Positions 32,721-64,000 of a DNA stretch of 64,000 nucleotides are shown here, piece by piece. The stretch comes from Nemertoderma westbladi (lineage: Eukaryota > Animalia > Xenacoelomorpha), in NCBI GenBank assembly GCA_032718475.1, contig JAUCBJ010003790.1:1-64000 (forward strand), given 5' to 3'. How positions within the stretch are numbered: the first letter of the stretch is position 1; each line of letters opens with the position of its first letter. The notes under the pieces were generated by a model. That model had not been told where the DNA came from and ran no database searches. It was given only the letters and a program-made list of their open reading frames with translations. Both the position numbers and the translations under genes were made by a program.

Positions 32721-33787
32721 CTAATTCTGTTTTGAGGCAGGAGACAAATTATAATCTCCCGTCTCGATACGTGTCTCCTCTAATAACACGATATCTTGGA
32801 CCGGTCGGTCCAAGGTGTGTAAACCATTAGTTTTACACTTTTTTGGGTGCGGACACTTGCACCTAATTTTCACAGTGACTGTGCGCACTATGTCTTGCAC
32901 GTCTGGGTGTGTGTGCAAGATCACTCCCGTCTCCCAATACTTTCTCTTGACAATCGGTTCGGTTATCAAGACGTAATCTCCCCTTTGGAGACTCCGAACC
33001 GTTTTGTACCACTTTGTTCTGGTAGATATGGTGGGAAGATAGTATTCCCGCCAATATTCCCAGAATGTGTACGCTACTAATTGAGTTACTTTCCAGCTTT
33101 TACGACTATATAGGTCGGCACTAATGGGTTCTGATGCCGGCACAAGAAATGCTGGACTCTGCATTAGCAAATGATTCGGCGTTAATGCAACACCGTCTGG
33201 CAACATAGCTATCGGCCTCGAGTTTAGGGTATGCTCGATTTCAATGAAAGCTGTGACCAGTTCGTCGTCGGTAAGTTGTTTATTTACAGGCAATGTTTTG
33301 GCAATGGCCTGCTTCACAGAGCGAACTAAACGCTCCCAACTTCCTCCTCTCCAAGGACTTTCTGGAGTATTGAATCTCCATTCTACTCGTTGCGGCAAAA
33401 GTGCTGCAGAAATTTCCTTATTCTGTGCCGCTTTATGAGCCGCGTTCAACTCGCTATTCCCTCCGACAAAGTTTGTACCCTTATCGGAGTAGAACGCCTT
33501 TACTAGTCCTCTCCTGGCCATAAATCTCTTCAAGGCCAGGAGCAGAGATTTGGTCGACATGTCTGCCACACGCTCGATGTGTATGGCTCTACTAGCCATG
33601 CATGTCAGTAGCAGACCCCATCGCTTGTGGGTCAGCCGTCCACTCTTTGCCTCAATCGGACCAAAACAATCCACCCCTGTGTTCGTAAAGGGTGGGTCAT
33701 ATGCCTGCACTCTCGCTTCCGGGAGTTCAGCCATCTCCTGTTCCAATACTCTGGCGTTCACCCTTTTGCAAACCAGACAGGCGTCAT
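32721..33787 (-). pseudogene. BEL/Pao integrase core (C-terminal part of gag-pol)
   Basis: PFTNTGVDCFGP, SRAIHIE, FYSDKGTNFVG, PWRGGSWERLVRSVK, LNSRP, LTPNHLL, FWEYWREYYL. Joins the upstream ORF in frame once the nested insertion is removed (TMYDACLVCKR). Confidence 0.93.
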
Positions 33788-38200: not shown

Positions 38201-41200
38201 ATCTGTTTATTGGCTTGTCGCCACCTGTAAACTCATAAGACATGGGTACTCTTGTATACCAACCTAGTATGGTCCTATGGGCATGTGGTCCATTGACATG
38301 CGGTTCAGCTGGTCTCGTTTCCCATATCTGGTGTGCGATCAGCTGTTCTGCACCAATCAACATAGAAACATTCCTATAACCTACCTGGTGTCTGGGTATC
38401 CTGAGCTTGTCAAAATACTCCTGTGCTATGGGACTCATCGGCGGCACCTTACCTAACTGCCTGCCGAATCCCTTCATAGCTAGACACTTAAATCCGTCCA
38501 ATGGCAAAGCTTTCCGTTCTTGTCGAGTATGTTGGTCTCTCGGAAGTAGGGAATCTAGTTCTACCGAAATTCTGTGTCCCTTGAGGTCTCCTACCCCGTG
38601 CATAGACTTCAACTCTATTTGGATCTCCTCGGCGTCCTGGAAGCTAGAAACAGCTCTCGCCACTTCCTCGTCGATATAGGATAATGTGGACGCAGTGTCC
38701 AACATCACATATATTCGCTTCGATCCCTTATCGCCAGTGAGTTTCACCGGAATCACGCTAAATATTTCCGACGTAGCCGATGATAAATACGTCCGCGCGC
38801 TGGTCGATGAACTATCCGCGGTGAAACCTTGGCAGGTCACTTCTCTCGCGCTCGACTCGCCATCCTCGTCCGACGAACCTGGTTGGTAACCATCGTCCTG
38901 AATGCCAGTGTACGTATTCCTCCTTATCGATACGGGTTCTTTGCTCCCCTTCCTGTGAGGATTTCGCTGTAAGTAACGGTCCGTTGGGGTATGGAAATCC
39001 GCATGTAGCAACTTGTGATGTAGTCTGCCGCATTCCATGCATCCGTCCTTGCTGTTCGGGCACTGCCGCCGTACATGGCCTGGCGCAAGACATGCCCAAC
39101 AGGTGTCCAACGTCCGCACTTGAACTCTTCTCTGTTCCGAATTTAATTCTTTGAACCGTCTGCAACTATCTAACTTATGGTCGTCAGATCTTACCTCCTT
39201 TAGTAAACAGTATTGGCAACCTACAAATCCATCCGGCAACTCCTGTTGCTTTAACCTAGGTCTATCTAACCGCTCACCTGACCATACTCGCGAGTCTGAT
39301 CTAAAGGCTGGGATACTCGAATTATATCTGTCTACTGAGTTAAATGTCACAGTGGTCCTGTCATCGTCAAAACTTACCATAGACTTACCGGTAACAGGTT
39401 TAGACTCCCTCATATTCTCTTCTGAGAAGTTTGATTTCATCTCTGCTACTGCGTCTGTGGCTATCATGTCATGAATATGCTGAAGTGTCAATACTTTACC
39501 TTGGCCCTCCAACTTATTCTCTAATTTGCGCCATTTCTGTCGGTAACGCATGTTTAAACGTCTTATTACGCTCTTTAAAACTTCGGCGTGATCACCATGA
39601 TGAGGTAGATTCACCGTCCTCAAGATGTCCAATGCGTTCGAAATAGCGTTCGCTAAGTTCAACAGCTCTAACGGAGTTGTAATCCTTCCGCCCTTACCCA
39701 AGTCTTCTACTATCGACTGCGCCATCTTGGTTTTATTCCCGTAGATGTCACTAAGCGTCTTCATCGCTAACTCGAATGCCCTTTCATTGCCGACGAAGTT
39801 ATCAGCAATGGCTCTAGGTTCTCGATGGAGCATCTGAAGCAAATAGTTGAACTTCTCGTTGGGAGTAAAGGTGCTGTTGGTTAGCTGCTCGTCGACATAG
39901 GTTTTAAAGGTCCTCCAGTGCTTATGGTTGCCCATAAACTTCTGGGGTTGTTGCGTCGGCAGTCCTTGCCTAGCAGCAAACTTACCTATGTCCCTAAGGG
40001 TTGCGTCGTTCCGGGTTAACAAATGGTTTAGTTCCGCAGGGTTGTTAAGTCTGGTCCTTTCCCGGTGGTTCCAACTTACCTGCTCCGCGTCCGTCCTTCT
40101 TTCCTTATAGTTTCGGGACTTCTGACGTCTCATTTCTTCCTCTTCATCGCTTGACTCGGTGTCAGTCCTTAGCGCTCGCGATGGTTTGCGCGCCGAGGCC
40201 CTGATCCAAGCCTCCTCAATAAATTTCTCGGCCGAATTTTCGAAGTTGGGATTATGAATATTCGGGACAGGCGTCCTTACCTGAGGTCTATGTGGTATAG
40301 TCTCCTCCGATATGCGTACTCGTTGACTAGGCTGGACTTTATCTAACTCAGGCCTGCTAGGATTAGAATTACTTCTTACCTGGGCTGCTTCCTTTAACCG
40401 TAGGTTGCTAAGCATGTCCGTTATAGGTTGGATGTGTGGCGATATAGCTTGCGCTAAACTAGCACTTAACTCATCCCTCGTAATAAATTCCTGGCTAGGG
40501 TTCTGTTGTATAGTCGGCTCTATCTGAGTAATCCGCTGTCTCTCATATGATCCCTCTTCCGGTTTAACCCGGAAGTTCTCCGTCGAACTGGGTCGGCGCT
40601 CCGTCCGCGTATTCCAAACCCGCGGGTTCGGTTCGCCAAGTACTCGTCCCGTCGGAGTTTCTTCTCTAAATTCTCCATTGTCTCGTTCGGTATACAGTGG
40701 TGCGGTGTTCCGATGACGTAGATTCTGCGCGATGGGTGAAGCACTAATACCAACTGGCGTGCGATATGTAGAGAATGGTTTAGCGATCCGTGTACTCGTA
40801 ATAGCTGGACCGGGTATAGGAATTCTGGTCGTCGTCGACTCGCGTATAGTCGGAGTTCTCGCTTCCTGTTCGGCCTTCTGCAGTGCGAACAGTTCTCGCA
40901 ACTCGGTCCCTACACTCGCCCCACATTCTTCGATCATTCGCATCCCCTTCTCGGCGATTTCGTTCGCCTTCCTAGTCCGTTCTTCGCTCTCTAAACTTAA
41001 TCTCGCACTTTCCAACTGCGCCAGTTTACGTTCTTCTTCTTCCCTCGCTCGTCTCGCTGCGCTCTCTTCTTCCACACGCGCCTTTTCTTCATACAACGCT
41101 TGTCGCTCTTTCTCGATCTCGAGTTCGCGTTCCTTACGTTCGCGTTCAAGTTGGAATTCGCGTTTCTTCGCTTCCCGTTCGCGTTCAAGTCGGAGTTCGC

Positions 41201-42479
41201 GTTCTTTCTGTTCGCGTTCTTTCTGTTCGCGTTCTTTCTGTTCGCGTTCAAGTTGGAGTTCGCGTTCAAGTTGGAGTTCGCGTTCAAGTTGGAGTTCGCG
41301 TTCCTTCTGTTCGCGTTCCGCTTGCTCACGCTTACCTTTCTCTTCCAACTCCCGCAACTTTGCGTCTAACTTACGTGTTCGCTCCCTTTCCCGCTCGGCT
41401 TCCTTCCGTGCTTCCGATGCACGCAAAACTTCTGCCTGTTGTTCGTCCAGTCGGCGTCTTCTCTCCTCCGCCGAGTTGTGAGAAACAAGGGATCTAGCAC
41501 ATATAACCTTCCCTCGCGCGTGACTAACCTGGGAATCGCCGCTGTCTCTGGATGCATCGTCGGGTGGAGTCAACGTCCTCTGTTGGATGTTCTCCGTCGT
41601 CGGTAGCACCTGACCTGGTACCACCACTCCATTCTGCATCAGCCAGCTAGTAACTTCCCTTTAATACCTGCGCTCCTCCTTGTCTTGGATCTCTTCTCGC
41701 TCCACTAACTCTCTCAACTCTGCGTCACTCACTTGAGTCGCCTGCGCTTGTGATGTCCATAGCAGCCAGTTCTCCGTCCTAACTCGTCGGAATCGCTCCG
41801 ATAACTCGCGGTGCTCTCACAAGGCTGCTAAAACCCTGTCGTAAATCCTCGTCGCTACGTCGCTCGACTGAGACTCTACTGCCTTCTTTGCTAGGACTGC
41901 AAGCTCCTCCGTCTGCTTGAATAACGCTGAGTTATATCCTCTTCTAATCTCTACTAACTCTACCCTCCCGATGTTCGCTGAGTCAGCTAACATTTTCCTT
42001 ACCTTGTCCGCCGTCCGGGTTATATGTCCGGCATGCGCGCGAAGTTTCTTCTTCATCGCAGTGTCGAACTCTCTATCACTTACCTGACTTACGCTCGGTG
42101 GACTTGAAGGATTATTTCGGGAACTACGGGTACTCCTTACAGCCGTCGGGACCACGGCACTTACCATACCCACAGGTCTGGAAACCGGGCTCCGGGCTCT
42201 CGCTTCTGCTACACTACCTTCCCTATCACTCACCTCTGTCCGGGCTGCCGTACAGTCCTTCCTATCAGTAGCGGTAGGGGATCCTAATACTATTACCTGA
42301 GGTTGTTGTTCTTCCTCACTAGTCACTGTCTCGTCCTCCTGTTCACTTACGTCAGCGTCGCTCGCTGCGTCGTCATAGTCGGCATTGTCGTCAACAGTAA
42401 TATTGACGCTATCGTCAGTCGGCGGTCCAGCCGCCGTCTCGTAGCTGTCCTCTAGTGCCTCTTTGTCTGAGACACTCAT
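35214..42479 (-). pseudogene. BEL/Pao gag-protease-RT-RNase H-integrase N-terminus polyprotein, broken by two in-frame stops
   Basis: Gag Cys/His knuckles (CWACLAPGHVRRQC, CMECGRLHHKLLH), protease MLDTAS, RT YLPHH..KVRVVND / DIEAMFHQV / FYMDD, RNase H LHLFSDAS / RAELQAA / FYWTDA / NPADITSRG, and IN HxxxHH. ORFs 41817-42479 and 35205-41639 share a frame, separated by TGA (41817-41819) and TAA (41661-41663). Confidence 0.93.
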
Positions 42480-43572
42480 AGTCTAATAATGTTTGCCTTC
42501 CGGCAAAATATCTCGCAAAGTTCGAGATATGATTATAATTTAACCGAAATACGGTCAAATTATTTGTCTAATAATCAGTTGGTCCAAAATGTCAAAATAA
42601 ATTCGCAATGCAATATTGTGAATTTAATGGGGTATATAGTTATAGCAAATACTAACACAATATTTAAACAAAAATATTATTATATAGCTACTATATAGCA
42701 TTAAATACCGGTATAGCACAAAATAACTCTGAATCTAATACAAAATATTCAAAATATACTTGCCACCCGAATATTTCTAATTTTATATATAGCTCTAATC
42801 AACGTAATTTTAGTTTCAAATATTATATGTATCCACTAGCGCGTGGCTACATCTTCGGGTTGCGACTCTCTCTAACTCTCTCTCTAACTTGAGCGATTCA
42901 AAACCATGGCCGGCTAAACCTAAATATCCTAACTAATAAATTGAGTTCAGCTTCGCAGTTAAACAACCGATAATTTTTTACTGCTTCCACAAACACACTG
43001 GTGCCAACAGAACAACTAACCTTGTTTGCTGTGAGATTCCACGTCCGCGTCCAAAGATTCAGTCCCTTCGCTGATTGCAAACCGAACCCGCAGACCCACA
43101 CGAACCCCAAACTCAGAAGTTCCGTCTTGCCATGTATCTCCAGATGGTATAAAATAACTAAACGGTTACCTAACATACCGGTACAAAACTCTAGAATTTT
43201 ACAAAATAATTTTGACCGAAACTGAATTCTCGCAAACCTAGCTAAAATTTTCAAAAAAAACTTACTAATTACAATTTGCCCTAAGGCCTAAGGAACTGCT
43301 GTATTCGCAATTAGCAAAACGCACTACCGTACATCCACTGTATGCAGTACAGTAAGTAAAACAGTACACCAACCTAACAGCCTAATGATACTGTATGTGG
43401 TACGGCAAAACAAATGTCCCTTCTACCGTACGCAGTAACAACAATCAGCCTAATGTACTACTGTACTATTGTACGCAGCCAGTGAATACAGTAATCTAAA
43501 CTAACAGCCTAAAAGAATATACTCAATGTTCTACTGTACGCTACAGCCTACAGCAAATAAAACATACCTTAC

Positions 43573-45825
43573 TGTTAAACAACCGCGACACCTATACTAA
43601 CAGCAGAACTGTTGGACAGACAAATACCCGTATACCTCTCTGCCAACGTAATGAGCTCTCGCCTAACCAATAAGACACAAAGACTGCTCTACTGTTAAGT
43701 AAAGGGGATCAGGAGTGTGCTATTACTGTATTACTAAATTGTAAGGGTTGCTAAATACAAAACCGCTACTTACCGTTGGATGGCGCTAATCTGCCGTCCG
43801 CTAATATATTTTACTAAATTTACACAGCTCCTGCAAAATCGCTTGTTCCTTTCTCTACCGATCGCTCGATAGAGAGCTAACTGTTCGAATCTATGAGCCA
43901 CGCGGGAATAACCAAAACAATAAACCCGAGTCGGCTCCCTAAGCTTACTTAAGACGAGTGCGAGGGGCTTTGCACTCAGAGTATATTCTTACGCCTAATT
44001 TTACTACTGAAATACGCTAATGCCTACGTCTTTTCTAATCGCGAATACTGGGGGTTCCCTAACGGAATGTGTGAATGCGAGAATATTTAAAATAATCAAA
44101 ATGGTACAGTACAATGTCTTTCGTAGGTGATACCGCTCTGGGTCTAAACTTGCCTGCAGCTGGCTTTAGGCCAGCAACTCACTAGTGTCTTGCGTACTGA
44201 CTATTGCGATCTAGTTTATTACCCGCTAATGCAAATAACCGCTTAGCACTTAGCGTGAATAGTTTACAGTACTCTAATTATTACCTTAGCTACTCTCCGC
44301 TATGCTGCGTACTAATTCTTAATTTTTACTAATCAATTACAGTCACAAATATGTAACAGCGTACTAATTACTAAGAGTTCCAGAATGCGTAATTCTAATT
44401 TATTACGCAACAGGTTTCGCTAGTAATAGCCTAAATTGCCGTATTACTTTGACCTAAGCAGTAGTTAATTGTTGTAACTAAGAAATAGAAATCAATCAAA
44501 AGGGAATGGGGCGCCTACCTAAGCATTCGTAATCATAGGCACACTTCAGTAACACACCAATCAGCGTCAGCAATCACAGATCACAATAGTACAACTTGCA
44601 ATTATACAATCTGCAATTATATAATTCGCAACATAATAATTCGCAATTGACTAATTCGCAATCTACTTACTCGCAACTTACTTACTGTAAGGTATGCAGG
44701 CCCCTCCCGGGTACATCTAGGCTTCCTAACTAACCCAATTCCTGCCCCCTAATACTAAATAGAGACAAAACCTGGATCATCAGCCCCCTAATTACTGTAC
44801 CAGCGAGCGGTCTCCAACCTACAGTCCAAATCGCCCGACCGCAACGTTGACCCCCCCCAGCGTTGCCCGCTTTTGAATCCTCCGCTCTCCCTAGTCGCTC
44901 AACCCCCCGATGTGCCCACCGCCCACTGGCACCTTAGCCCTTCATTATGCTAATAGCTACCGTAGCGGCGCATGCAAATCACAAAGTCTGACAGTCTCAG
45001 AAATCCCTTAGGATTATTGCGCAGAAAGGAATCACATAGAACCATTAATCAAAAGTAGAAATCATAGTTCAGTTGTAATTAGCAGCAATCGAAAGAATTA
45101 ATTGAGAAACACAATCGAGAGTAATCGCACTAGCAAATCATTCCAAGAAATTAATCAAAATTAGCAAATTGCAGAAAATACGCTAAAATATCCGTCAAAA
45201 ATTGAATAAGGACAGCTCAGCAAGTACAAAGATGATAGCAGATCATGTGAGGTGTCATGTGAGGCTCTACCAGCACACCGCCAATTTATAGGTGATCCGG
45301 ATGGGGTGATGCAATAGGGTGACTCAATCGCTTTCTTATTGGCTCTCCAGTCCGTGCTAGCACTAGACCAACCTGGAAGCAGCTAGTCCAATAAGGAGGC
45401 CGGATTGTAGCCCTATTTGCTCCCCTTCCTCGAATTATTACCATATATGGTAATGGTTCACGTCTCTGGCTGCTGAATGGCCAGGACAGCGTCCCTATAT
45501 GCTAGCCCTACTAAAGCTAATATCAGCAAGCACGGAATCCAGGGTCCGAATAAACTTACCCTGGAACTATCTACATATAACCTAATACAAAATTACGTAG
45601 GTAGGGCTACATACTATACAAAATGGATGGATTCAAATATATGGGTGTTTCGATTTCCCTATCTAAATACCACTGCGTTATTATGCCTTATCTAAAATAT
45701 CATGCTGCACAACGGACTAATATTACATACTGCATAACGGACTAATATTGCATACTGCATAACGGACTAATATTGCATACTGCATGATGACTAATATTAT
45801 GGATACAGCGCCATATACCGTAACA
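43573..45825 (-). repeat. 5' LTR (2253 bp)
   Basis: Direct repeat of 27778-30012 plus an 18-bp extra segment near 44705. Confidence 0.96.
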
Positions 45826-48296: not shown

Positions 48297-50478
48297 GGCA
48301 TTGTGCCTGGCACTGGTTGTAGAACTGATCACCCAACCCAGTACCGGTCCACGGCATAGTGCCTGGCACAGGTTGTACAAAGGTTAACCCAGTACCGGTC
48401 CACGGCATAGTGCCTGGCACAGGTTGTACTGAGGTTAACCCTTGTACAACCGGTGCCACGGCACTATGCCGTGGACCGGTACTGGGTTAACCTTTGTACA
48501 ACCAGTGCCAGGCACTATGCCGTGGACCGGTACTGGGTGTAACAGTTCTACAACCTGTGCCAGGCACTACGCCGTGGACCGGTACTGGGTGATCAGTTGT
48601 ACAACCTGTGCCAGGCACTATGCCGTGGACCGGTACTGGGTGATCAGTTCTACAACCAGTGCCAGGCACTATGCCGTGGACCGGTACTGGGTTAACCTTT
48701 GTACAACCTGTGCCAGGAACTATGCCGTGGACCGGTACTGGGTTGGGTGATCAGTTCTACAACCAGTGCCAGGCACTATGCCGTGGACCGGTACTGGGTT
48801 AACCTTTGTACAACCTGTGCCAGGCACTATGCCGTGGACCGGTACTGGGTTAACCTTTGTACAACCTGTGCCAGGAACTATGCCGTGGACCGGTACTGGG
48901 TTGGGTGATCAGTTCTACAACCAGTGCCAGGCACTATGCCGTGGACCGGTACTGGGTTAACCTTTGTACAACCTGTGCCAGGCACTATGCCGTGGACCGG
49001 TACTGGGTTAACCTTTGTACAACCTGTGCCAGGCACTATGCCGTGGACCGGTACTGGGTTGGGTGATCAGTTCTACAACCAGTGCCAGGCACTATGCCGT
49101 GGACCGGTACTGGGTTAACCTTTGTACAACCTGTGCCAGGCACTATGCCGTGGACCGGTACTGGGTTAACCTTTGTACAACCTGTGCCAGGCACTATGCC
49201 GTGGACCGGTACTGGGTTAACCTTTGTACAACCTGTGCCAGGCACTATGCCGTGGACCGGTACTGGGTTAACCTTTGTACAACCTGTGCCAGGCACTATG
49301 CCGCGGACCGGTACTGGGTGATCAGTTCTACAACCAGTGCCAGGCACTATGCCGTGGACCGGTACTGGGTTAACCTTTGTACAACCTGTGCCAGGCACTA
49401 TGCCGTGGACCGGTACTGGGTTAACCTTTGTACAACCTGTGCCAGGCACTATGCCGTGGACCGGTACTGGGTTAACCTTTGTACAACCTGTGCCAGGCAC
49501 TATGCCGTGGACCGGTACTGGGTTAACCTTTGTACAACCTGTGCCAGGCACTATGCCGTGGACCGGTACTGGGTTAACCTTTGTACAACCTGTGCCAGGC
49601 ACTATGCCGTGGACCGGTACTGGGTTAACCTTTGCTACAACCAGTGCCAGGCACTATGCCGTGGACCGGTACTGGGTTAACCTTTGTACAACCTGTGCCA
49701 GGCACTATGCCGTGGACCGGTACTGGGTTAACCTTTGTACAACCAGTGCCAGGCACTATGCCGTGGACCGGTACTGGGTTAACCTTTGTACAACCTGTGC
49801 CAGGCACTATGCCGTGGACCGGTACTGGGTGATCAGTTCTACAACCAGTACCAGGCACTATGCCGTGGACCGGTACTGGGTTAACCTTTGTACAACCTGT
49901 GCCAGGAACTATGCCGTGGACCGGTGTTGGGTTAACCTTTGTACAACCTGTGCCAGGCAATATGCCGTGGACCGGTACTGGGTTAACCTTTGTACAACCT
50001 GTGCCAGGCACTATGCCGTGGACCGGTACTGGGTGATCAGTTCTACAACCAGTGCCAGGCACTATGCCGTGGACCGGTACTGGGTGATCAGTTCTACAAC
50101 CTGTGCCAGGCACTATGCCGTGGACCGGTACTGGGTTAACCTTTGTACAACCAGTGCCAGGCACTATGCCGTGGACCGGTACTGGGTTAACCTTTGTACA
50201 ACCAGTGCCAGGCACTATGCCGTGGACCGGTACTGGGTTAACCTTTGTACAACCTGTGCCAGGCACTATGCCGTGGACCGGTACTGGGTGATCAGTTCTA
50301 CAACCAGTGCCAGGCACTATGCCGTGGACCGGTACTGGGTTAACCTTTGTACAACCAGTGCCAGGCACTATGCCGTGGACCGGTACTGGGTTAACCTTTG
50401 TACAACCTGTGTCAGGCACTAGGCCGTGGACCGGTACTGGGTTAACCTTTGTACAACCTGTGCCAGGCACTAGGCCGT
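48297..50478. repeat. 51-bp tandem array with an inverted left arm (foldback-like)
   Basis: About 40 copies of GCCAGGCACTATGCCGTGGACCGGTACTGGGTTAACCTTTGTACAACCTGT at 48442-50478, and about 2.7 reverse-complement copies at 48297-48441. Confidence 0.95.
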
Positions 50479-50777
50479 ACTTGCATTCGTCTGCTCTTAT
50501 TGTAAAAGTGATGAAAATTCTTAATAACAAGAATATATCCCTTCATAACCAAAGACTTTTGGAGAAAAACTTTTTTGCACCAAATTCTACTTATATTTAT
50601 GAAATTTAAGTAAAAAACGACGACAGAAAAGTATCATGACGTAATATAATATTAAAGAAATGCCACTGCAGATCCAATAGGGGGCGTACTTAGTAAAGTC
50701 TATAGGTCTACGATCCCCTTAAGGTAAACAATGTTGAGTAACAATAAACAGTTGGTGTTTATATATATTGGCGCACA

Positions 50778-50909
50778 TTAAGCTAAATAGACGTAAACTT
50801 TACGATCAGATGAACTTCGGGCCAAGTATTCGCGCTCTATAAGAGATTCAATTCGTTTTTTTATGTTTTGTGGACTTGGTGGGAACCGAGTTCGAAGTTG
50901 TTCAACAAC
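50778..50909 (-). CDS. CUL3: Cullin-3, last coding exon
   Basis: ttctcacag|[43 protein letters not shown], the cullin WH-B C-terminus; 132 bp, phase 0. Confidence 0.93.
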
Positions 50910-51051
50910 CTGTGAGAAATAATAAAAATTACAAAATAATTGGATGTACAGGACATTCGGTAGGGCTATCAGCTATTTATTACTACCGATCTATACGGAA
51001 CGGACAATAAAGCGAGATGTAGTCACTTAGTCTGTTACTATGGTAACCAAC

Positions 51052-51263
51052 CTCTGATATTAACTGGTTGTTATTCAACTCCCTTCGACTCTTCATGATA
51101 CGAACTATAGCCGCTTCTATCTCGTGTTTGCGGTCCTCGTCAACTTTCGCTTTGGTTTCCTTACGTTCCGGTTCAGACTCTCCTTTAGCTGCTAAGCCGA
51201 CGACCTTCACTCGCATCAGTTTAGATGTGTATGAGTCATTAACAGAGAACAAGTGATCTTTAG
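51052..51263 (-). CDS. CUL3: Cullin-3 exon with the neddylation-site motif
   Basis: tttacag|(A)[70 protein letters not shown]|gttggt. IVRIMKSR motif present; phase 1 start matches the previous exon. The acceptor actually used is inferred. Confidence 0.9.
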
Positions 51264-54200
51264 CTGTAAATATAGATGTGTGTGAGTCATTAACAGAGAA
51301 CAAGTGATCTTTAGCTGTAAATATAGATGTGTATGAGTTATTAACAGAGAACAAGTGATCTTTAGCTGTAAATATAGATGTGTGTGAGTTATTAACAGAG
51401 AACTAGTGATCTTTAGCTGTAAATATAGATGTGTGTGAGTTATTAACAGAGAACAAGTGATCTTTAGCTGTAAATATAGATGTATGTGAGTCATTAACAG
51501 AGAACAAGTGATCTTTAGCTGTAAATATAGATGTGTGTGAGTCATTAACAGAGAACAAGTGATCTTTAGCTGTAAATATAGATGTGTGTGAGTTATTAAC
51601 AGAGAACAAGTGATCTTTAGCTGTAAATATAGATGTGTGTGAGTCATTAACAGAGAACAAGTGATCTTTAGCTGTAAATATAGATGTGTGTGAGTCATTA
51701 ACAGAGAACAAGTGATCTTTAGCTGTAAATATAGATGTGTGTGAGTCATTAACAGAGAACAAGTGATCTTTAGCTGTAAATATACATGTGTGTGAGTCAT
51801 TAACAGAGAACAAGTGATCTTTAGCTGTAAATATAGATGTGTGTGAGTCATTAACAGAGAACAAGTGATCTTTAGCTGTAAATATAGATGTGTGTGAGTC
51901 ATTAACAGAGAACAAGTGATCTTTAGCTGTAAATATAGATGTGTGTGAGTTATTAACAGAGAACAAGTGATCTTTAGCTGTAAATATAGATGTGTGTGAG
52001 TCATTAACAGAGAACAAGTGATCTTTAGCTGTAAATATAGATGTGTGTGAGTTATTAACAGAGAACAAGTGATCTTTAGCTGTAAATATAGATGTGTGTG
52101 AGTCATTAACAGAGAACAAGTGATCTTTAGCTGTAAATATAGATGTGTGTGAGTCATTAACAGAGAACAAGTGATCTTTAGCTGTAAATATAGATGTGTG
52201 TGAGTTATTAACAGAGAACAAGTGATCTTTAGCTGTAAATATAGATGTGTGTGAGTTATTAACAGAGAACAAGTGATCTTTAGCTGTAAATATAGATGTG
52301 TGTGAGTCATTAACAGAGAACAAGTGATCTTTAGCTGTAAATATAGATGTGTGTGAGTCATTAACAGAGAACAAGTGATCTTTAGCTGTAAATATAGATG
52401 TGTGTGAGTCATTAACAGAGAACAAGTGATCTTTAGCTGTAAATATAGATGTGTGTGAGTTATTAACAGAGAACAAGTGATCTTTAGCTGTAAATATAGA
52501 TGTGTGTGAGTTATTAACAGAGAACAAGTGATCTTTAGCTGTAAATATAGATGTGTGTGAGTCATTAACAGAGAACAAGTGATCTTTAGCTGTAAATATA
52601 GATGTGTGTGAGTCATTAACAGAGAACAAGTGATCTTTAGCTGTAAATATAGATGTGTGTGAGTTATTAACAGAGAACAAGTGATCTTTAGCTGTAAATA
52701 TAGATGTGTGTGAGTCATTAACAGAGAACAAGTGATCTTTAGCTGTAAATATAGATGTGTGTGAGTCATTAACAGAGAACAAGTGATCTTTAGCTGTAAA
52801 TATAGATGTGTGTGAGTCATTAACAGAGAACAAGTGATCTTTAGCTGTAAATATAGATGTGTGTGAGTCATTAACAGAGAACAAGTGATCTTTAGCTGTA
52901 AATATAGATGTGTGTGAGTCATTAACAGAGAACAAGTGATCTTTAGCTGTAAATATAGATGTGTGTGAGTCATTAACAGAGAACAAGTGATCTTTAGCTG
53001 TAAATATAGATGTGTGTGAGTCATTAACAGAGAACAAGTGATCTTTAGCTGTAAATATAGATGTGTGTGAGTCATTAACAGAGAACAAGTGATCTTTAGC
53101 TGTAAATATAGATGTGTGTGAGTCATTAACAGAGAACAAGTGATCTTTAGCTGTAAATATAGATGTGTGTATGAGTCATTAACAGAGAACAAGTGATCTT
53201 TAGCTGTAAATATAGATGTGTGTGAGTCATTAACAGAGAACAAGTGATCTTTAGCTGTAAATATAGATGTGTGTGAGTCATTAACAGAGAACAAGTGATC
53301 TTTAGCTGTAAATATAGATGTGTGTATGAGTCATTAACAGAGAACAATTGATCTTTAGCTGTAAATAAAGATGTGTGTGAGTCATTAACAGAGAACAAGT
53401 GATCTTTAGCTGTAAATATAGATGTGTATGAGTCATTAAGAGAGAACAAGTGATCTTTAGCTGTAAATATAGATGTGTGTGAGTCATTAACAGAGAACAA
53501 GTGATCTTTAGCTGTAAATATAGATGTATGTGAGTCATTAACAGAGAACAAGTGATCTTTAGCTGTAAATATAGATGTGTGTGAGTCATTAACAGAGAAC
53601 AAGTGATCTTTAGCTGTAAATATAGATGTGTGTGAGTCATTAACAGAGAACAAGTGATCATTAGCTGTAAATATAGATGTGTGTGAGTCATTAACAGAGA
53701 ACAAGTGATCATTAGCTGTAAATATAGATGTGTGTGAGTCATTAACAGAGAACAAGTGATCTTTAGCTGTAAATATAGATGTGTGTGAGTCATTAACAGA
53801 GAACAAGTGATCTTTAGCTGTAAATATAGATGTGTGTGAGTCATTAACAGAGAACAAGTGATCTTTAGCTGTAAATATAGATGTGTGTATGAGTCATTAA
53901 CAGAGAACAATTGATCTTTAGCTGTAAATATAGATGTGTGTGAGTCATTAACAGAGAACAAGTGATCTTTAGCTGTAAATATAGATGTGTATGAGTCATT
54001 AAGAGAGAACAAGTGATCTTTAGCTGTAAATATAGATGTGTGTGAGTCATTAACAGAGAACAAGTGATCTTTAGCTGTAAATATAGATGTATGTGAGTCA
54101 TTAACAGAGAACAAGTGATCTTTAGCTGTAAATATAGATGTGTGTGAGTCATTAACAGAGAACAAGTGATCTTTAGCTGTAAATATAGATGTGTGTGAGT

Positions 54201-54395
54201 CATTAACAGAGAACAAGTGATCTTTAGCTGTAAATATAGATGTGTGTGAGTCATTAACAGAGAACAAGTGATCTTTAGCTGTAAATATACATGTGTGTGA
54301 GTCATTAACAGAGAACAAGTGATCTTTAGCTGTAAATATAGATGTGTGTGAGTCATTAACAGAGAACAAGTGATCTTTAGCTGTAAATATAAATG
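51224..54395 (-). repeat. 51-bp array = CUL3 3' splice site + exon start, about 62 copies
   Basis: - strand unit acatctatatttacag|CTAAAGATCACTTGTTCTCTGTTAATGACTCACAC. Confidence 0.95.
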
Positions 54396-54937
54396 TTAGT
54401 TTATGTTTGTTTGTTTGATACTTGGTACATCTGCGAGCTAAGCTGTACCAAGGCATCTGGCGTCTCTGTTTTAGACGATCGCCCTCACTCCTCACACAAT
54501 TTTACCTCTCGGACTTTGTTGTCCCTTCCTCTCTCGCCAGTCCCTTAGGACTCATCCTCCTCTCCGCTAGCTCCCCACACTCGGACCTCGCACCCTTTAC
54601 TTTTCTCCCTTAGCTCTAGCACCTTCTCCCCACGCTCCCCTGATACTCAACCCCTCGACTCATGCTCTCTAAGTTCTTTTGGTTGGGTTCCCACGGTCTC
54701 ATACAAGTATACGTTGTATATAATAAGTGAGTCCCTCGTCTTATCCTCCTGTTCCAGTCAATTAGGTCCCAGTCCCAGTAGCTAATTGGAAAAGGTTACA
54801 TCTGACTATAGTACGTATTTTATATATTATATATTCGTCCACACGACGTGTCTTAACCCCCCGCCCCTTTCGGAAGCGATATGACTCGCCTCTCCCCGTC
54901 TCACCCCCCACTTGAGTGAATCCGCAAGTCGCGCAGC

Positions 54938-55420
54938 CTATTCCTCTCGGAACTTGTTCCACTCCATCGCCTTGTGGTACGTGAGTCCCATCGACTGACC
55001 CATCGCCACGGCTCCGTATTGTCCCGTGTTATCCACCAATCCTAATCCATCAGGTTTCGTCATAGCCATGTAGACTACCTGCATGTCCAGAAGATTCGTA
55101 GTGTCAGGTCCAATAATCCTCTCTGCGTCGCCGCGTATCGCCGTTCCAATATCGATCGTAGTCTTTGACCTTACCAGCTTCTGCATCGCATCCGGTAGGC
55201 GGTTCAACTTTGGCCCGGTCTTCTTACCCTAGGTCGCTAGGTCAAACAGAAAAATATCTCCATTCACTGCCACTAAATGCACCAATATAGTCCTACTCGA
55301 CCCTCCTGACCCCTTTCTTGTCCCACCATCATCCTCTTCTGTCTCCACGTCATCCGGGACCCACGATATCCACGGAATCCGATAAACTCCTTCATAGTTT
55401 CTCCGCCATCACGATTCTCC
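54938..55420 (-). pseudogene. Decayed DEDDy (WRN/EXD-like) 3'-5' exonuclease-like sequence
   Basis: TILVHLVAVNGDIFLFDLAT*...LPDAMQKLVRSKTTIDIGTAIRGDAERI...NLLDMQVVY resembles the WRN-exo pattern LLQLA...YLFDL...LP..LK.LL.....KVG..I..D..KL...DL. In-frame stops are present. Confidence 0.5.
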
Positions 55421-55814
55421 TCTCTCACCAGACTGGTAGTGCCTTAGAAAGGCTCAGTAGGGCAAGAGATAACTAAGTATGGTCTTAATTTGTTTAAATC
55501 AGTGATGGCCTACCTCCTATCTGCGTTCTGTCAGTGTTTCGTGCCTCTATGTGCCAATTTACCCCTGATTCTTCAGTGCTGTGTTCACTCCCCAACCTCA
55601 ACTGACGTGCTATTACTCTATCTACTACTCAATTACCATGTAAGTAATTCATCACTACTTGTCTACAGAGAAGACTAGCTATAATTTCTTCCTCTTGTAG
55701 TAGCTTCCTACCAGATAACCTTCAGGCTCTGTAGCAATGTTCTAACTCCGCACTACGGGTTATACGCTACAGTAGTCTAGTTTGTCCGGCCTACACAGTC
55801 TATCCTACCACGCC

Positions 55815-57220
55815 TACATATCCCCCTCAACTCCTCACGTGGCGCCCTCAGTGCCCACAAGTTTACGGTACTATATATCCCTCTACTACGGTATGCATAC
55901 ATACCCCCCCCCCCCCCCTCAACTCCTCACGTGGCGCCCTCATTGCCCACAAGTTTACGGTACTATGTACCCCTCTACTACGGTATGCGTACATACCCAC
56001 CCTCAACTCCTCACGTGGCGCCCTCAGTGCCCACAAGTTTACGGTACTATGTATCCCTCTACTACGGTATGCGTACATACCCCCCCCCCCCCCCTCAACT
56101 CCTCACGTGGCGCCCTCAGTGCCCACAAGTTTACGGTACTATGTATCCCTCTACTACGGTATGCGTACATACCCCCCTCAACTCCTCACGTGGCGCCCTC
56201 AGTGCCCACAAGTTTACGGTACTATGTATCCCTCTACTACGGTATGCATACATACCCCCCCCCCTCAACTCCTCACGTGGCGCCCTCAGTGCCCACAAGT
56301 TTACGGTACTATGTACCCCTCTACTACGGTATGCGTACATACCCCCCTCAACTCCTCACGTGGCGCCCTCAGTGCCCACAAGTTTACGGTACTATGAACC
56401 CCTCTACTACGGTATGCATACATACCCCCCCCCCCCCTCAACTCCTCACGTGGCGCCCTCAGTGCCCACAAGTTTACGGTACTATGTATCCCTCTACTAC
56501 GGTATGCGTACATACCCCCCCTCAACTCACGTGGCGCCCTCAGTGCCCACAAGTTTACGGTACTATGTACCCTTCTACTACGGTATGCGTACATACCCCC
56601 CCTCAACTCCTCACGTGGCGCCCTCAGTGCCCACAAGTTTACGGTACTATGTATCCCTCTACTACGGTATGCGTACATACCCCCCCTCAACTCACGTGGC
56701 GCCCTCAGTGCCCACAAGTTTACGGTACTATGTATCCCTCTACTACGGTATGCGTACATACCCCCCCTCAACTCACGTGGCGCCCTCAGTGCCCACAAGT
56801 TTACGGTACTATGTACCCTTCTACTACGGTATGCGTACAATACCCCCCCTCAACTCCGCACGTGGCGCCCTCAGTGCCCACAAGTTTACGGTACTATGTA
56901 TCCCTCTACTACGGTATGCGTACATACCCCCCCTCAACTCACGTGGCGCCCTCAGTGCCCACAAGTTTACGGTACTATGTATCCCTCTACTACGGTATGC
57001 GTACATACCCCACCCCCCCACAGCTCCTCATGTGGCGCCCTCAGTGCCCACAAGTTTACGGTTCTATGTACCCCTATACTACGGTATGCGTACATATCCC
57101 CCCTCAACTCCTCACGTGGCGCCCTCAGTGCCCACAAGTTTACGGTACTATGTACCCCTCTACTACGGTATGCGTACATACCCCCCCTCAACTCCTCACG
57201 TGGCGCCCTCAGTGCCCACA
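55815..57220 (+). repeat. ~80-86-bp tandem array with a variable poly-C tract, about 17 copies
   Basis: Unit (C)nTCAACTCCTCACGTGGCGCCCTCAGTGCCCACAAGTTTACGGTACTATGTATCCCTCTACTACGGTATGCGTACATA. Confidence 0.95.
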
Positions 57221-57465
57221 GTAGTGCGTATGTAAATTAGGTACGCTGCTACATTTTTGTACCCGTCCAACGTACGTAATTGCAACTACCTACACCTATG
57301 TATTATGTACGTTGGTACGTCTGTACCCATCAGACGTACATAATGCCTACCTACAGCGTACCTTGGTACTAATGTTTTACTTATTTTATTTTTTTATTTT
57401 GTTTAGTATGTGGGAAGGGCGTCTCGCCCTCATTCCCACCCCCATCAGTCCAATATATTGGACGA

Positions 57466-58512
57466 CTTCATCGGCAGCGAGTTTTCTCTAAACTTACCGA
57501 TCTCTGTTCCCTTCATCGGCAGCGAAGTTTTCTCTAAACTTACCGATCTCTGTTCCCTTCATCGGCAGCGAGTTTTCTCTAAACTTACCGATCTCTGTTC
57601 CCTTCATCGGCAGCGAAGTTTTCTCTAAACTTACCGATCTCTGTTCCCTTCATCGGCAGTGAGTTTTCTCTAAACTTACCGATCTCTGTTCCCTTCATCG
57701 GCAGTGAGTTTTCTCTAAACTTACCGATCTCTGTTCCCTTCATCGGCAGTGAGTTTTCTCTAAACTTACCGATCTCTGTTCCCTTCATCGGCAGCGAGTT
57801 TTCTCTAAACTTACCGATCTCTGTTCCCTTCATCGGCAGTGAGTTTTCTCTAAACTTACCGATCTCTGTTCCCTTCATCGGCAGTGAGTTTTCTCTAAAC
57901 TTACCGATCTCTGTTCCCTTAATCGGCAGCGAGTTTTCTCTAAACTTACCGATCTCTGTTCCCTTCATCGGCAGCGAAGTTTTCTCTAAACTTACCGATC
58001 TCTGTTCCCTTCATCGGCAGCGAATTTTCTCTAAACTTACCGATCTCTGTTCCCTTCATCGGCAGCGAATTTTCTCTAAACTTACCGATCTCTGTTCCCT
58101 TCATCGGCAGCGAATTTTCTCTAAACTTACCGATCTCTGTTCCCTTCATCGGCAGTGAGTTTTCTCTAAACTTACCGATCTCTGTTCCCTTAATCGGCAG
58201 CGAGTTTTCTCTAAACTTACCGATCTCTGTCCCCTTCATCGGCAGTGAGTTTTCTCTAAACTTACCGATCTCTGTTCCCTTCATCGGCAGCGAATTTTCT
58301 CTAAACTTACCGATCTCTGTTCCCTTCATCGGCAGTGAGTTTTCTCTAAACTTACCGATCTCTGTCCCCTTCATCGGCAGTGAGTTTTCTCTAAACTTAC
58401 CGATCTCTGTCCCCTTCATCGGCAGTGAGTTTTCTCTAAACTTACCGATCTCTGTCCCCTTCATCGGCAGTGAGTTTTCTCTAAACTTACCGATCTCTGT
58501 CCCCTTCACCGG
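57466..58512 (-). repeat. 45-bp array = CUL3 exon end + 5' splice site, about 23 copies
   Basis: - strand unit ATGAAGGGAACAGAGATCG|gtaagtttagagaaaactcactgccg. Confidence 0.95.
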
Positions 58513-58707
58513 AAGTTTATTCAATATTTTTTGCTGCGGTTTCGCTAAACTCAAACTAAGAAGTGCCCGTTGTAAATCGTTTTCAGGGATGTCTGTTTCC
58601 TGTTGAATTTCCTCGAAGGTCCAACTTTCTCGTTTGTTAAACAACATTAGGATACACATTTGGTAGGTAGAAACCACCAGTATGTGATATTTAATTGTTC
58701 CATCGTC
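58491..58707 (-). CDS. CUL3: Cullin-3 exon
   Basis: tttag|[72 protein letters not shown]+G|gtaagt; 217 bp, ends in phase 1. Confidence 0.92.
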
Positions 58708-58770
58708 CTAAATATAAAAATAAATAAAATAAAATAAACAGGGGAAATTAAACTTACCTTAAACAGTGGC

Positions 58771-60648
58771 TGTTAATTTACAGGAGCTAATAAACCAACA
58801 GGTTGACGCCATCAATGATGCTGACGACAGCAGGCAATCATCCCAGGCATGGAAATCGATCAATCTGCTTACTGGGCGGAAAAGCCAACCAACCACCAAG
58901 GTTAAGGCTGAATCACCAGCCGATCGCCTCAATGGTTGGAAAGCCCACTTTGAAAAGCTCCTCAATAATGACAGGGTATTGCCTGATAACTTTATAGAAG
59001 TAAAAGTGTCTGAGTCTGTACTCCCAGATATTCCCATTGGCGATATCTCCTTTGCAGAAGTGAAGGCTGCTGCAAAGAGCATTAAGACCAATCGTGCCAG
59101 TGGAGTAGATGGTGTTCCCCCTGAGGTCTTTAAAATACCTGAGTGTTTAAAGCTCATCTATCCCATCATAGTAGACATGTACCGAACAACAAGAGTCCCA
59201 CAAGAAATGAAAACAAATAAGTTGGTGCCAGTTCCCAAGAAAGGCAACCTAACACTCTATGGTTCTTTTCGGGGAATCTCATTGATCTCGATTGCTGCAA
59301 AGCTATACAATAGAATTCTATTAAATCGCATCAGGGATCCCATTGAGAGACTGCTCCGTGGAAATCAGAATGGGTTCCGTAAAGGTCGTGGGACCATGGA
59401 GCCCATTTTGGCACTTAGAAGGATAATTGAAGAGTTATCAAAAAAGAAAGACAGGCATCTGGCTGTTATCTTTGTTGACTTCTTCAAGGCCTTTGATTCA
59501 GTCTCTCGCTCACGTATGTTCAGCATACTTTCATTATATGGGATTCCTGATGAAATTATTGCAGCAATCAGATCAGTATACGATGGTTCGACAACATTTG
59601 TGTCTACTGTTGACGGTGACACAGAACCATTTGAAGTGTTATGGGGCGTCCTCCAGGGAGACACACTTGCCCCAAATCCTGTTCATAATTGTTGTTGACT
59701 ATGTTCTACGCATGTCCTTAGATCATCATAATGATGATGGGGTGATGATAACTCCACCTACTGGCTCCAGAAGTCGAGGAAATCCTGCCAAGTACCTAAC
59801 TGATCTAGAATTTGCTGATGACTTAGAAGTACTCTCAGAATCACTAGAGGGAGCCCAAAGGCTCCTTAGCTCATTAGAACATGCTGCTTCTAGTGTTGGT
59901 CTTTTTATTAACTCCAGAAAGACCAAAATTATGACAGTTAACTTTGAAAGTCCTCAGCAAGTCTTTGATCGGATGAGCATAAGCTCAAAAGATGGTATGC
60001 TTGAGCATGTGGACGACTTCTGTTACCTGGGATCATGGATCCGGAAGTCAGGTGAGGACCTTCGAATACGTAAGGGAAAGGCATGGGCAGCCTTGAATAG
60101 GCTTTCCAGGATTTGGAAGTCACTGAGAATTAATCGGACACTTAAGGTCCGATTATTTAGAGCAGCAGTAGTTCCAGTACTCCTCTATGGGAGTCCATGC
60201 TGGGCTCTAACTGCTGAGGACACCAAATCTCTGGATGGCACATTCACAAGAATGCTACGCCGGGTTCATTGTGTCAAGTACAATGCACACATCTCCAACC
60301 AGACACTATATAACATTGGAGGTGTCCCATTGGTTCCCCCAAGCTTGACACTAGAACAAAATCGCCTCCGCTTTACAGGACATTGCTTTCGCCGTGAGGA
60401 CCAGCCAGTGCATAATCTTGTACTTTGGCAGCCTCATGGAGAGAATAAGCATGGTGGACAGCCCATGGCTTTCTTGAGACGCATCTTAAAGGACACTGGC
60501 CTTAAAGAAGCAGATGATCTAGCAAATGTCATGGGTGATAGGGAGTTGTGGCGGTGCAATTTTGTCGACAAGCCGGCACAGCATTCTTAAAAATGCAGCT
60601 GCAATGCAGCATGCCGATCCTAGTAGTAGTAGTAGTAGTAGTAGTAGT
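58771..60648 (+). mobile_element. 5'-truncated non-LTR retrotransposon (RTE-like RT), frameshifted
   Basis: RT motifs VPVPKKGNL..FRGISL, QNGFRKGR, FVDFFKAFDSV, GVLQGDTLAP, LEFADD, FCYLGS. Frameshift near 59672 and a (TAG)n 3' tail at 60621-60648. Antisense to CUL3. Confidence 0.92.
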
Positions 60649-60764
60649 AAACTTACAATAAACAGCGGTCCATTAAACTTACAATAAACAGCGGTCCATT
60701 ACACTTACAATAAACAGTGGTCCATTAAACTTACAATAAACAGAGGTCCATTAAACTTACAATA
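60649..60764 (-). repeat. 26-bp donor-derived repeat (further copies at 61050-61086 and 58748-58770)
   Basis: - strand unit ATGGACCGCTGTTTA(AG/TT)GTAAGTTT(A), matching the exon junction TTTAAG|GTAAGTTT at 61103. Confidence 0.75.
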
Positions 60765-61049
60765 ATGAAATTAGCACAAATATATTAGATTCGATAGATA
60801 TTAGGAAACGGCAAATTCATATTTATGTTTTATAAAAGTTTGCAACCGTAAATTAATATGCTAAGGTTTTATTATAAAAATTACGTAAGTAGGGCTACAT
60901 ACTGTATAAAATCGGTTGAATATAAATGAACTTGTATATTTTCTATTTACCCTATCTAATTATTACGGTTGCACATCAATACGCACTTATCTATCTTATT
61001 TTATACTGTATAACGGGATGTTTCAGACACAACGCCATATATCGCAACA
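60765..61049 (-). mobile_element. Truncated, diverged LTR fragment related to the BEL element's LTR
   Basis: AAAATTACGTAAGTAGGGCTACATACT...CCCTATCTAA...GACACAACGCCATATATCGCAACA aligns by eye with LTR 29776-30012 (...GATACAGCGCCATATACCGTAACA). Left boundary approximate. Confidence 0.75.
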
Positions 61050-61102
61050 CAGCGGTCCAATAAACTTACCTTAAACAGCGGTCCATCGGTCCGCAAACTT
61101 AC

Positions 61103-61312
61103 CTTAAAGAAGTAAGCTTTTAGGTCTGCATTACCCATGTGCTGTTGTAGAGTGAGCTGTCTACCGTTGTGTTTATTGAGATAGAAGACTTTGAACCTTG
61201 AGTATGCGTCCTGCGCCACCGATGGTAGGTTCCCGGAATTAGTAACTGTATGAGTTGGCCAGAAACCAGTGGTGAGCACCTTCACGTTCAAATCTAGCCC
61301 GTGCATGTTCGT
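61103..61312 (-). CDS. CUL3: Cullin-3 exon
   Basis: tttag|TNMHGLDLNVKVLTTGFWPT...FYLNKHNGRQLTLQQHMGNADLKAYFFK|gtaagt; 210 bp, phase 0/0. Confidence 0.93.
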
Positions 61313-61834
61313 CTAAAGCAATATTGTTAGTTAGGAGTGTAAAACAGGTTGTACTAATTAAAGATTAACCCCGTAAACATGTACATCTGGCAATGCGATA
61401 ATAAAAAGCTTTATGTTACAATATATAATGCAATAATGAAGTAATCTTATAGAATGGATTGGATTCATTGATATATTCGAGTTCGATTCAAGTAGAGTAA
61501 GAGGTGAAACCAATATCTGTGTATATCAATCATATAGTTATTCTGTTTTACTGATTTACCGGTCAGTTCATTAATCACAGAGTTGCAGACCGGTTATAGT
61601 TTTTGACCGTCGCCAACCAATATCTATTACTGATTTACTGCTGTTATTCTGCATTGCGATATCAATCACATACTAATTCTGTGCTATTATCATTTGGAAC
61701 ATTAACATCGAGAAACACAAACTCTGTTACTTTTCCCCAACGGCCTTCGGCCAAAAGGACACTAGCTCAGCAGCCCAGCAGAACGGTGACGCGTACTAAA
61801 CCTTACCCGGTCGGGATCTACGATCCCGTCACAT

Positions 61835-62265
61835 TAACCACATAGACTATATTGTTAATATTAACCACATTGACTATTATTAATATTAACCACATTGACT
61901 ATATTATTAATATTAACCACATTGACTATATTATTAATATTAACCACATTGACTATATTATTAATATTAACCACATTGACTATATTATTAATATTAACCA
62001 CATAGACTATATTGTTAATATTAACCACATTGACTATATTATTAATATTAACCACATTGACTATATTATTAATATTAACCACATTGACTATTATTAATAT
62101 TAACCACATTGACTATATTATTAATATTAACCACATAGACTATATTGTTAATATTAACCACATTGACTATATTATTAATATTAACCACATTGACTATATT
62201 ATTAATATTAACCACATTGACTATTATTAATATTAACCACATTGACTATATTATTAATATTTACC
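61835..62265 (+). repeat. 27/24-bp AT-rich intronic minisatellite, about 16 copies
   Basis: Unit ATATTAACCACATTGACTATATTATTA; begins 27 nt into the intron from the donor. Confidence 0.92.
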
Positions 62266-62291
62266 ACGTATTGTCTGCACTACACACTTAC

Positions 62292-62399
62292 ATTAGAAGT
62301 TGCGATGCTTTCTTTAAATTCTTCATTAGTTGAGGTAGAAACAGTCATATCTCGAAACATTCCTTCCAGTCTACTAGTGAACTGACAACCGCATTCAGT
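62292..62399 (-). CDS. CUL3: Cullin-3 exon
   Basis: tttag|TECGCQFTSRLEGMFRDMTVSTSTNEEFKESIATSN|gtaagt; 108 bp; TECGCQFTS is characteristic of CUL3. Confidence 0.93.
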
Positions 62400-62464
62400 C
62401 TAAATATTACAATTATTAATATTTACTAAAATTAAATATATGTAATATAGTTATAAACTATCCA

Positions 62465-64000
62465 ACCTTTAATTTAGTTACATATTTTTCTCACTAACCT
62501 TTAGTTTAGTTAACATATTATTTTTCTCACCAACCTTTAGTTTAGATACATATTTTTCTCACTAACATATTATTTTTCTCACTAACCTTTAGTTTAGTTA
62601 CATATTTTTCTCACTCACCTTTAGTTTAGTTACATATTTGTCACACTAACATTTAGTTTAGTTAACATATTATTTTTCTCACTAACCATTAGTTTAGTTA
62701 CATATTTTTCTCACTCCCCTTTAGTTTAGTTACATATTTTTCTCATTAACCTTTAGTTTAGTTAACATATTAATTTTCTCACTCACCTTTAGTTTAGTTA
62801 CATATTTTTCTCACTAACCTTTAGTTTAGTTACATATTTTTCTCACTCAGCTGTAGTTTAGTTACATATATTTCTCATTAACCTTTAGTTTAGTTAACAT
62901 ATTATTTTTCTCACTAACCATTAGTTTAGTTACATATTTTTCTCACTCACCTTGAGTTTAGTTACATATTTTTCTCACTAAAATTTAGTTTAGTTAACAT
63001 ATTATTTTTCTCACAACCTTTAGTTTAGTTACATATTTTTCTCACTCACCTTTAGTTTAGTTACATATTTTTCTCACTCAGCTGTAGTTTAGTTACATAT
63101 TTTTCTCATTAACCTTTAGTTTAGTTAACATATTATTTTTCTCACTAACCATTAGTTTAGTTACATATTTTTCTCACTCACCTTGAGTTTAGTTACATAT
63201 TTTTCTCACTAAAATTTAGTTTAGTTAACATATTATTTTTCTCACTCACCTTTAGTTTAGATACATATTTTTCTCACTCACCTTTAGTTTAGTTAACATG
63301 TTTTTCTCACTCACCTTTAGTTTAGTTACATATTTTTCTCACTCACCTTTAGTTTAGTTACATATTTTTCTCACCAACCTTTAGTTTAGTTACATATTTT
63401 TCTCACTCACCTTTAGTTTAGTTAACATGTTTTTCTCACTCACCTTTAGTTTAGTTACATATTTTTCTCACTCACCTTTAGTTTAGTTACATATTTTTCT
63501 CACTAACCTTTAGTTTAGTTAACATATTATTTTTCTCACTTACCTTTAGTTTAGTTACATATTTTTCTCACTCACCTTTAGTTTAGTTACATATTTTTCT
63601 CACTAACCTTTAGTTTAGTTAACATATTATTTTTCTCACGAACCTTTAATTTAGTTACATATTTTTCTCATTCACCTTTAGTTTAGTTAACATATTATTT
63701 TTCTCACTAACCATTAGTTTAGTTACATATTTTTCTCACTCACCTTTAGTTTGGTTAACATATTATTTTTCTCACGAACCTTTAATTTAGTTACATATTT
63801 TTCTCACTCACCTTTAGTTTAGTTAACATATTATTTTTCTCACTAACCATTAGTTTAGTTATATATTTTTCTCACTCCCCTTTAGTTTAGTTACATATTT
63901 TTCTCACTAACCTTTAGTTTAGTTAACATATTATTTTTCTCACTAACCTTTAGTTTAGTTACATATTTTTCTCACTAAAATTTAGTTTAGTTAACATATT
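62465..64000 (-). repeat. 32-36-bp array = upstream CUL3 exon end + 5' splice site, about 45 copies, running off the window
   Basis: The best-preserved - strand units read AGT GAG AAA AAC ATG TTA ACT AAA CTA AAG|gtgagt = SEKNMLTKLK + donor, the expected residues before TECGCQ. Confidence 0.88.

Follow-up and report, generated by a model that had tools for sequence, protein, structure and literature searches.

Tandem repeats that multiply the splice site at an exon-intron border are described in mammalian and amphioxus genes. In human F7, 5-9 identical donors are present and only the most upstream is used, the use of later donors falling with distance (PMC1557585), while LMNB2 and PDGF (PDGFA) are given in the same source as using the authentic donor only. 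IFI6 contains 25 pseudo-sites, two of which are also used (PMC1557585), and three mRNAs are reported for this gene (PMC4526556); two pseudo-sites are also used at the CBS minisatellite (PMC1557585). Moreover, a 68-bp duplication where intron 7 of CBS meets exon 8 results in the more distal site being favoured (PMC2630376). In amphioxus, such repeats have been named 'mirages'; duplication can affect 5' as well as 3' boundaries, and splicing appears regular (PMC3087553), as it also does at the mirages of PGBD5, Adh, and troponin C (PMC3902484). In the literature searched, whose coverage was partial, no report was found of both ends of one intron being amplified or of inserts in CUL3.

The DNA analysed here, referred to as the window, is a stretch of 64,000 nucleotides from Nemertoderma westbladi (contig JAUCBJ010003790.1, positions 1 to 64,000). 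It contains five C-terminal coding exons of a CUL3 gene, colinear with homologues, stop-free, and well conserved, listed here in order of transcription:

62292..62399, minus strand: CUL3 exon three upstream (Pfam Cullin, E 7.6e-11; tblastn)
61103..61312, minus strand: CUL3 exon two upstream (Pfam Cullin, E 5e-19), whose donor has 7 further copies in the intron that follows
58491..58707, minus strand: CUL3 exon upstream of the donor array, 217 nt, ending at donor 1 (Pfam Cullin, E 1.1e-20; human cullin-3 588-649, E 1.9e-20)
51052..51263, minus strand: CUL3 exon downstream of the arrays, 212 nt (Pfam Cullin_Nedd8, E 1.1e-10; human cullin-3 656-725, E 7.3e-24)
50778..50909, minus strand: last CUL3 coding exon, with the stop codon (Pfam Cullin_Nedd8, E 2.8e-13; tblastn)

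Judged by these five exons, the gene is cullin-3, with its Cullin and neddylation domains. Specifically, the best PDB matches are cullin-3 structures (E ~1e-20 and 1e-23, versus 1e-6 and 1e-9 for other cullins), and the best CUL3 protein match reaches 75% over the exon (4 matches among 46 candidates). The downstream exon (51052..51263) carries a lysine that aligns with human K712, the neddylation site, ~57 residues past the junction with the preceding exon. Both the assignment of the gene to CUL3 and the placement of the junction upstream of the neddylation site, made in the original prediction from the letters of the sequence, are thereby upheld.

The intron that separates the 217-nt and 212-nt exons is occupied by repeats at either end and in the middle:

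51264..58490, minus strand: intron, phase 1, 7,227 nt if donor 1 and acceptor 62 are used
57466..58512, minus strand: donor minisatellite, 45-bp unit in 23.2 copies, with 23 identical donors, of which donors 1-12 are in open frame
55815..57220, no strand assigned: unrelated 84-bp minisatellite, 15.5 copies, mid-intron, between the donor and acceptor arrays
51222..54396, minus strand: acceptor minisatellite, 51-bp unit in 62.1 copies, with 62 identical acceptors, of which the last 3 are in open frame

The donor unit comprises ~20 nt of exon end and 25 nt of intron start. The donor GTs, counted by script on the minus strand (n = 23), lie at 58490, 58445, and so on down to 57497, with a spacing of 45 bp in 19 of the 22 intervals and of 46 bp after donors 12, 20, and 22, and one 9-mer is common to all of them. 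The donor 10-mer was found nowhere else in the window when both strands were searched, which argues that the donor array is not a chance assembly. The acceptor unit comprises ~10 nt of intron end and 41 nt of exon start; the first exon bases of the acceptors run from 54380 to 51263 (script count, n = 62), spaced by 51 bp in 58 of 61 intervals and by 53 bp in the other three (after copies 10, 21, and 24), with one 13-mer common to all 62, and the ancestral intron end lies before acceptor copy 1. Mean pairwise differences between units are 3.1% in the donor array and 1.5% in the acceptor array, so both arrays are young or homogenised. A search for mini-exons or recursive sites found the acceptor array to be free of GTRAG, and the donor array to lack any AG preceded by a pyrimidine tract. 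In both arrays, head-to-tail repeats of minisatellite length hold exon and intron sequence together with the splice signal, and the terminal unit overlaps the true exon-intron border; on this organisation, the arrays are a double-ended, boundary-spanning 'mirage' minisatellite in a cullin-3 intron.

This anatomy agrees in its main lines with the original prediction, which had described 45-bp units with identical donors (23 donors share the 9-base site), an intron amplified at both its ends (23 donors and 62 acceptors), and a frame that stays open until a 46-bp unit. Indeed, the open frame reaches donor 12 (57995) and not beyond; the predicted figure of 12 donors is the count of those in open frame, out of a total of 23, and position 58491, given for the first donor, is the last exon base, the GT starting at 58490. 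Microhomology at the donor seed was found as proposed, 8 of 9 bases being identical between the exon end and the intron tail, and a microhomology origin holds; at the acceptor seed, the similarity across the border is shorter. The 15-residue and 17-residue repeat peptides are also present in the open frame, with slight variation between units: Met is replaced by Ile in donor units 7 and 13, and acceptor unit 60 differs by two changes.

A stop codon in acceptor copy 59 restricts the usable acceptors to copies 60-62, so that 59 of the 62 acceptors lead to a broken frame. Of the 1,426 possible pairings of a donor with an acceptor, exactly 36 keep the frame without meeting a stop, namely donors 1-12 combined with acceptors 60-62, which is the number of in-frame variants originally predicted. 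These 36 open pairings, together with a frame kept over 11 consecutive donor units, could suggest that the arrays are a source of protein variants. It is nonetheless highly improbable that many of the 36 pairings are made under selection, with a variable-length insert upstream of the neddylation site tuning CUL3, and hardly to be expected that donors 1-12 and acceptors 60-62 are combined into a repeat-number-dependent CUL3 ladder, its inserts of 15 and 17 residues lying in the winged-helix hairpin loop that precedes the neddylation lysine by ~57 residues. Of all possible border duplications of 30-70 bp, 514 of 1,671 on the donor side and 534 of 1,671 on the acceptor side are in frame and open, jointly 0.098; chance alone would give an open frame at both ends in about one case in ten. 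That the unit lengths are multiples of three is presumably due to chance, although it may limit the harm done if a neighbouring copy is used in rare mis-splicing. Frame-breaking units are not significantly kept away from the exons (p 0.11 for donors, 0.87 for acceptors). As to the changes within units, counted without the six off-length units, three of the four substitution types in the donor array are silent in the open frame (p 0.033-0.071; 19 units of 45 bp, few sites), which would favour selected isoforms, whereas the acceptor units appear to be without constraint, only one of eight changes being silent and one creating a stop (58 units of 51 bp, few sites), and their open frame is closed by a stop three units from the exon. 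Pooled over both arrays, 4 of 12 changes are silent, close to the 22-28% expected, which speaks against selection on the encoded peptides.

An 8-base complement links donor and acceptor units within their exon-derived portions; it is reached by 4.3% of 1,000 shuffles, and its duplex energy by 5-8%. A mechanism in which such pairing guides splicing was considered and not accepted, since the complement was noticed post hoc and lies in exon-derived sequence; it may be the trace of a hairpin across the junction in the mRNA.

The same gene contains further repeats derived from its donors, and a mobile element lies among them:

58757..61069, minus strand: seven partly decayed copies of the 61102 donor in units of 26-33 bp, interrupted by insertions, only the first copy being in frame and open
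about 58763-60649, plus strand: LINE-like reverse transcriptase element, frameshifted, with RVT_1 hits and a (TAG)n tail
62464..64000, minus strand: third donor-type array, with units mostly of 32 or 36 bp, at least 45 units, running off the window; older, with the frame mostly broken

The copies of the 61102 donor are split by an insert of ~300 bp and by the LINE-like element. In the 62464..64000 array, 26 of 44 spacings are 32 bp, and the frame is kept open across only four of the 22 intervals that separate donor-like sites. Read as protein, its 33- and 36-bp units resemble what homologues have immediately ahead of the 62399 exon, with 7 of 9 residues identical (E ~56 alone), and then continue into a donor; the array would thus be the copied end of the next exon upstream together with its donor, an assignment that rests on position and phase, as the 9-residue match is weak by itself and the parent exon lies outside the window. 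Overall, within the part of the gene covered by the window, three of the five donors and one of the five acceptors leading into or out of five introns are amplified, mostly regardless of frame, and the breakage of frame by these sister arrays within CUL3 itself argues against a selected ladder at the 45-bp and 51-bp arrays.

Repeats abound in the rest of the window as well, ten arrays covering 32,129 of its 64,000 bp, or half of it. A 27-bp array of 16 copies (61833-62267) starts ~24 bases into the intron after donor 62291, and its unit is without a donor. Three arrays look intergenic: one of 88 bp x 144 (7422-20099), one of 53 bp x 47 (4392-7072), and one of 51 bp x 40 just 3' of CUL3 (48297-50478), with an inversion at its low end. 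A Pao/BEL LTR retrotransposon (~27778-45800) is located between two blocks of an 18-bp satellite, with long near-identical direct repeats ~15.8 kb apart, a 2,151-aa ORF with Peptidase_A17 and DUF1759 (35205-41660), and an integrase-side ORF (32721-33800). Two other genes or ORFs are apparently intronless, namely a TMEM55/PIP4P phosphatase gene on the plus strand (21867-22631; Pfam E 5.8e-61, best match 52% identity) and a minus-strand ORF (733-1425) that resembles, by eye, a p24/TMED cargo receptor, in contrast with the repeat-filled introns of CUL3.

The length of the protein discriminates among the 36 open pairings. Joining donor 1 to acceptor 62 gives a distance of 72 residues between two conserved anchors, and this distance is 71 in every one of the 123 close CUL3 homologues (118 scored by motif and five by ungapped alignment between the anchors), while the next pairings give 87 and 89 and the longest 271; by this comparison, only donor 1 with acceptor 62 matches the conserved CUL3 length. 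The arrays are then probably removed with the intron through splicing of donor 1 to acceptor 62, and an ordinary cullin-3 is made. A search of sequencing runs with positions 50560-51262 listed no RNA run containing them, a result that weighs on the splice choice in neither direction. As the 123 homologues were chosen by similarity and are biased against insertions, the best 150 hits of a 50%-identity library were also checked. Among these, 34 were without a cullin match, 66 without the right flank, and 50 could be scored for the loop at the junction, which measures 9 residues in 35 of these divergent cullins and 7-11 in 47, with lengths of 4, 17, and 30 in one each; a loop at least 15 residues longer occurs in only one of the 50, and this 30-residue hit looks like a read-through intron. 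In the database cullin P0264, the loop is 21 residues longer, and the extra stretch starts where the array-bearing intron sits, which looks like intron read-through at a conserved position.

The proteins compared offer no example of such an insert, as none was found among the 123 close homologues or the best 150 library hits, a set that includes no close relative of the animal. Neither repeat peptide occurs in any stored database protein, the source organism apparently being absent from the databases, and in a profile-free library search with the exon and repeats as the query, none of the best 150 hits spans both the cullin and the repeat parts, two results that also weigh against selected combinatorial isoforms; in the latter search, the exon retrieved cullins and the repeats retrieved unrelated periodic proteins at 17-38% identity. 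Conversely, the site itself could accommodate additional residues. In the AlphaFold model of a homologue (P0139), whose mean pLDDT is a modest 66, the junction falls in a predicted loop (residues 641-650, pLDDT ~70-77) between two strands (637-640 and 651-654), and because of this position an insert might fold, yet inserts are rare in natural cullins.

The predicted loop would suit a selected ladder and also a plausible, though less likely, situation in which splicing of donor 1 to acceptor 62 dominates and a small but measurable share of molecules uses donors 2-3 or acceptors 60-61. The resulting minor CUL3 forms would be in frame, would carry 15-34 additional residues in a surface loop, and would be tolerated without having a role. 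Such in-frame products would escape nonsense-mediated decay; the 9-mer identical in all 23 donors is also consistent with occasional use of later copies. Among the precedents, two repeat donors further downstream are used in IFI6, and in CBS two pseudo-sites (PMC1557585, PMC4526556), while the authentic donor only is used in F7, LMNB2, and PDGFA (PMC1557585), and the single divergent cullin with a loop at least 15 residues longer has the appearance of read-through. Since splicing in the precedents stays with the authentic site or extends to no more than the two copies nearest to it, and since none of the cases described in PMC1557585 uses more than three sites, broad use of the 36 pairings is unlikely; the frame-breaking sister arrays, the conserved loop length, and the unconstrained acceptor array likewise make combinatorial isoforms unlikely.

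The preferred reading, a single normal product from donor 1 and acceptor 62, can be tentatively framed in terms of array growth and exon definition. Each array would have started as a single duplication, by slippage or mis-repair at a short microhomology across the border, and would then have expanded by unequal exchange, as other satellites of this repeat-rich genome; the recurring 46- and 53-bp variants are suggestive of such growth. In an intron of 7.2 kb, the spliceosome would define the two short exons of 217 and 212 nt, and exon definition would select, of all donors, the one that comes first after the upstream acceptor and, of all acceptors, the one that comes last ahead of the downstream donor. 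One observation runs against this choice. Acceptor 1 retains the ancestral CTAAC branch-point motif, and the later copies, five of which were examined, have only TTAAT and CTCAC/CTCAT at -27 and -20; with CTAAC only before acceptor 1, scanning for the first AG would be expected to settle on an upstream acceptor with a broken frame. As the protein needs one of the last three acceptors, exon definition would have to override the branch-point preference, and the mammalian and amphioxus rules of splice choice may fail in this animal. The best branch-point motif at acceptor 1 and the broken frame that follows from 59 of 62 acceptors would also fit a gene copy damaged by the acceptor array, with upstream frame-broken acceptors in use, or copy numbers inflated by assembly. 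Either is very unlikely, given that the five coding exons in the window are free of premature stops and show good conservation, and that unit variants are shared in patterns typical of real array turnover.

As most likely read, with donor 1 joined to acceptor 62, the CUL3 intron shows a known type of repeat in unusually complete form and may mislead gene prediction. It is also a natural test of exon definition, as an essential gene must single out one of 1,426 pairs and, among 62 identical acceptors, settle on the last when the ancestral branch point stands before the first. If a ladder of products were true, a minisatellite would be a source of variants of a ligase scaffold that is otherwise very conserved and, in its combinatorial form, would act as a heritable dial on a core ubiquitin ligase.

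Among the described systems, the 37-bp VNTR of F7 intron 7, LMNB2, and PDGFA resemble CUL3 in that the first unit spans the exon-intron border and identical donors follow the authentic one (PMC1557585). F7 differs in having 5-9 copies, a frame-breaking unit, and no acceptor array, and the use of the first donor is demonstrated in F7 and predicted for CUL3 (PMC1557585). IFI6 (6-16) intron 2 and CBS intron 13, where ~15-25 donors are repeated and the two closest to the authentic one are used as well, would be the best precedent for a short ladder, although they are repeated on the donor side only and yield three products at most (PMC1557585, PMC4526556); the passages on them name no function for the additional forms. 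CBS 844ins68 shares with CUL3 a duplicated intron/exon junction, the distal site being favoured and a normal mRNA resulting, with two copies only versus 62 in CUL3 (PMC2630376). Lastly, the amphioxus mirages (Adh3, the globins BflGb6/BflGb9, troponin C, and PGBD5) are like the CUL3 arrays in that an exon-intron boundary is duplicated in tandem and the units carry splice signals; they can affect 5' as well as 3' boundaries, have units of 10-160 bp, and occur several per genome region (PMC3087553, PMC3902484). Unlike these, the CUL3 arrays amplify both ends of the same intron, in 23 and 62 copies (2-6 in the globin examples), with both units in frame.
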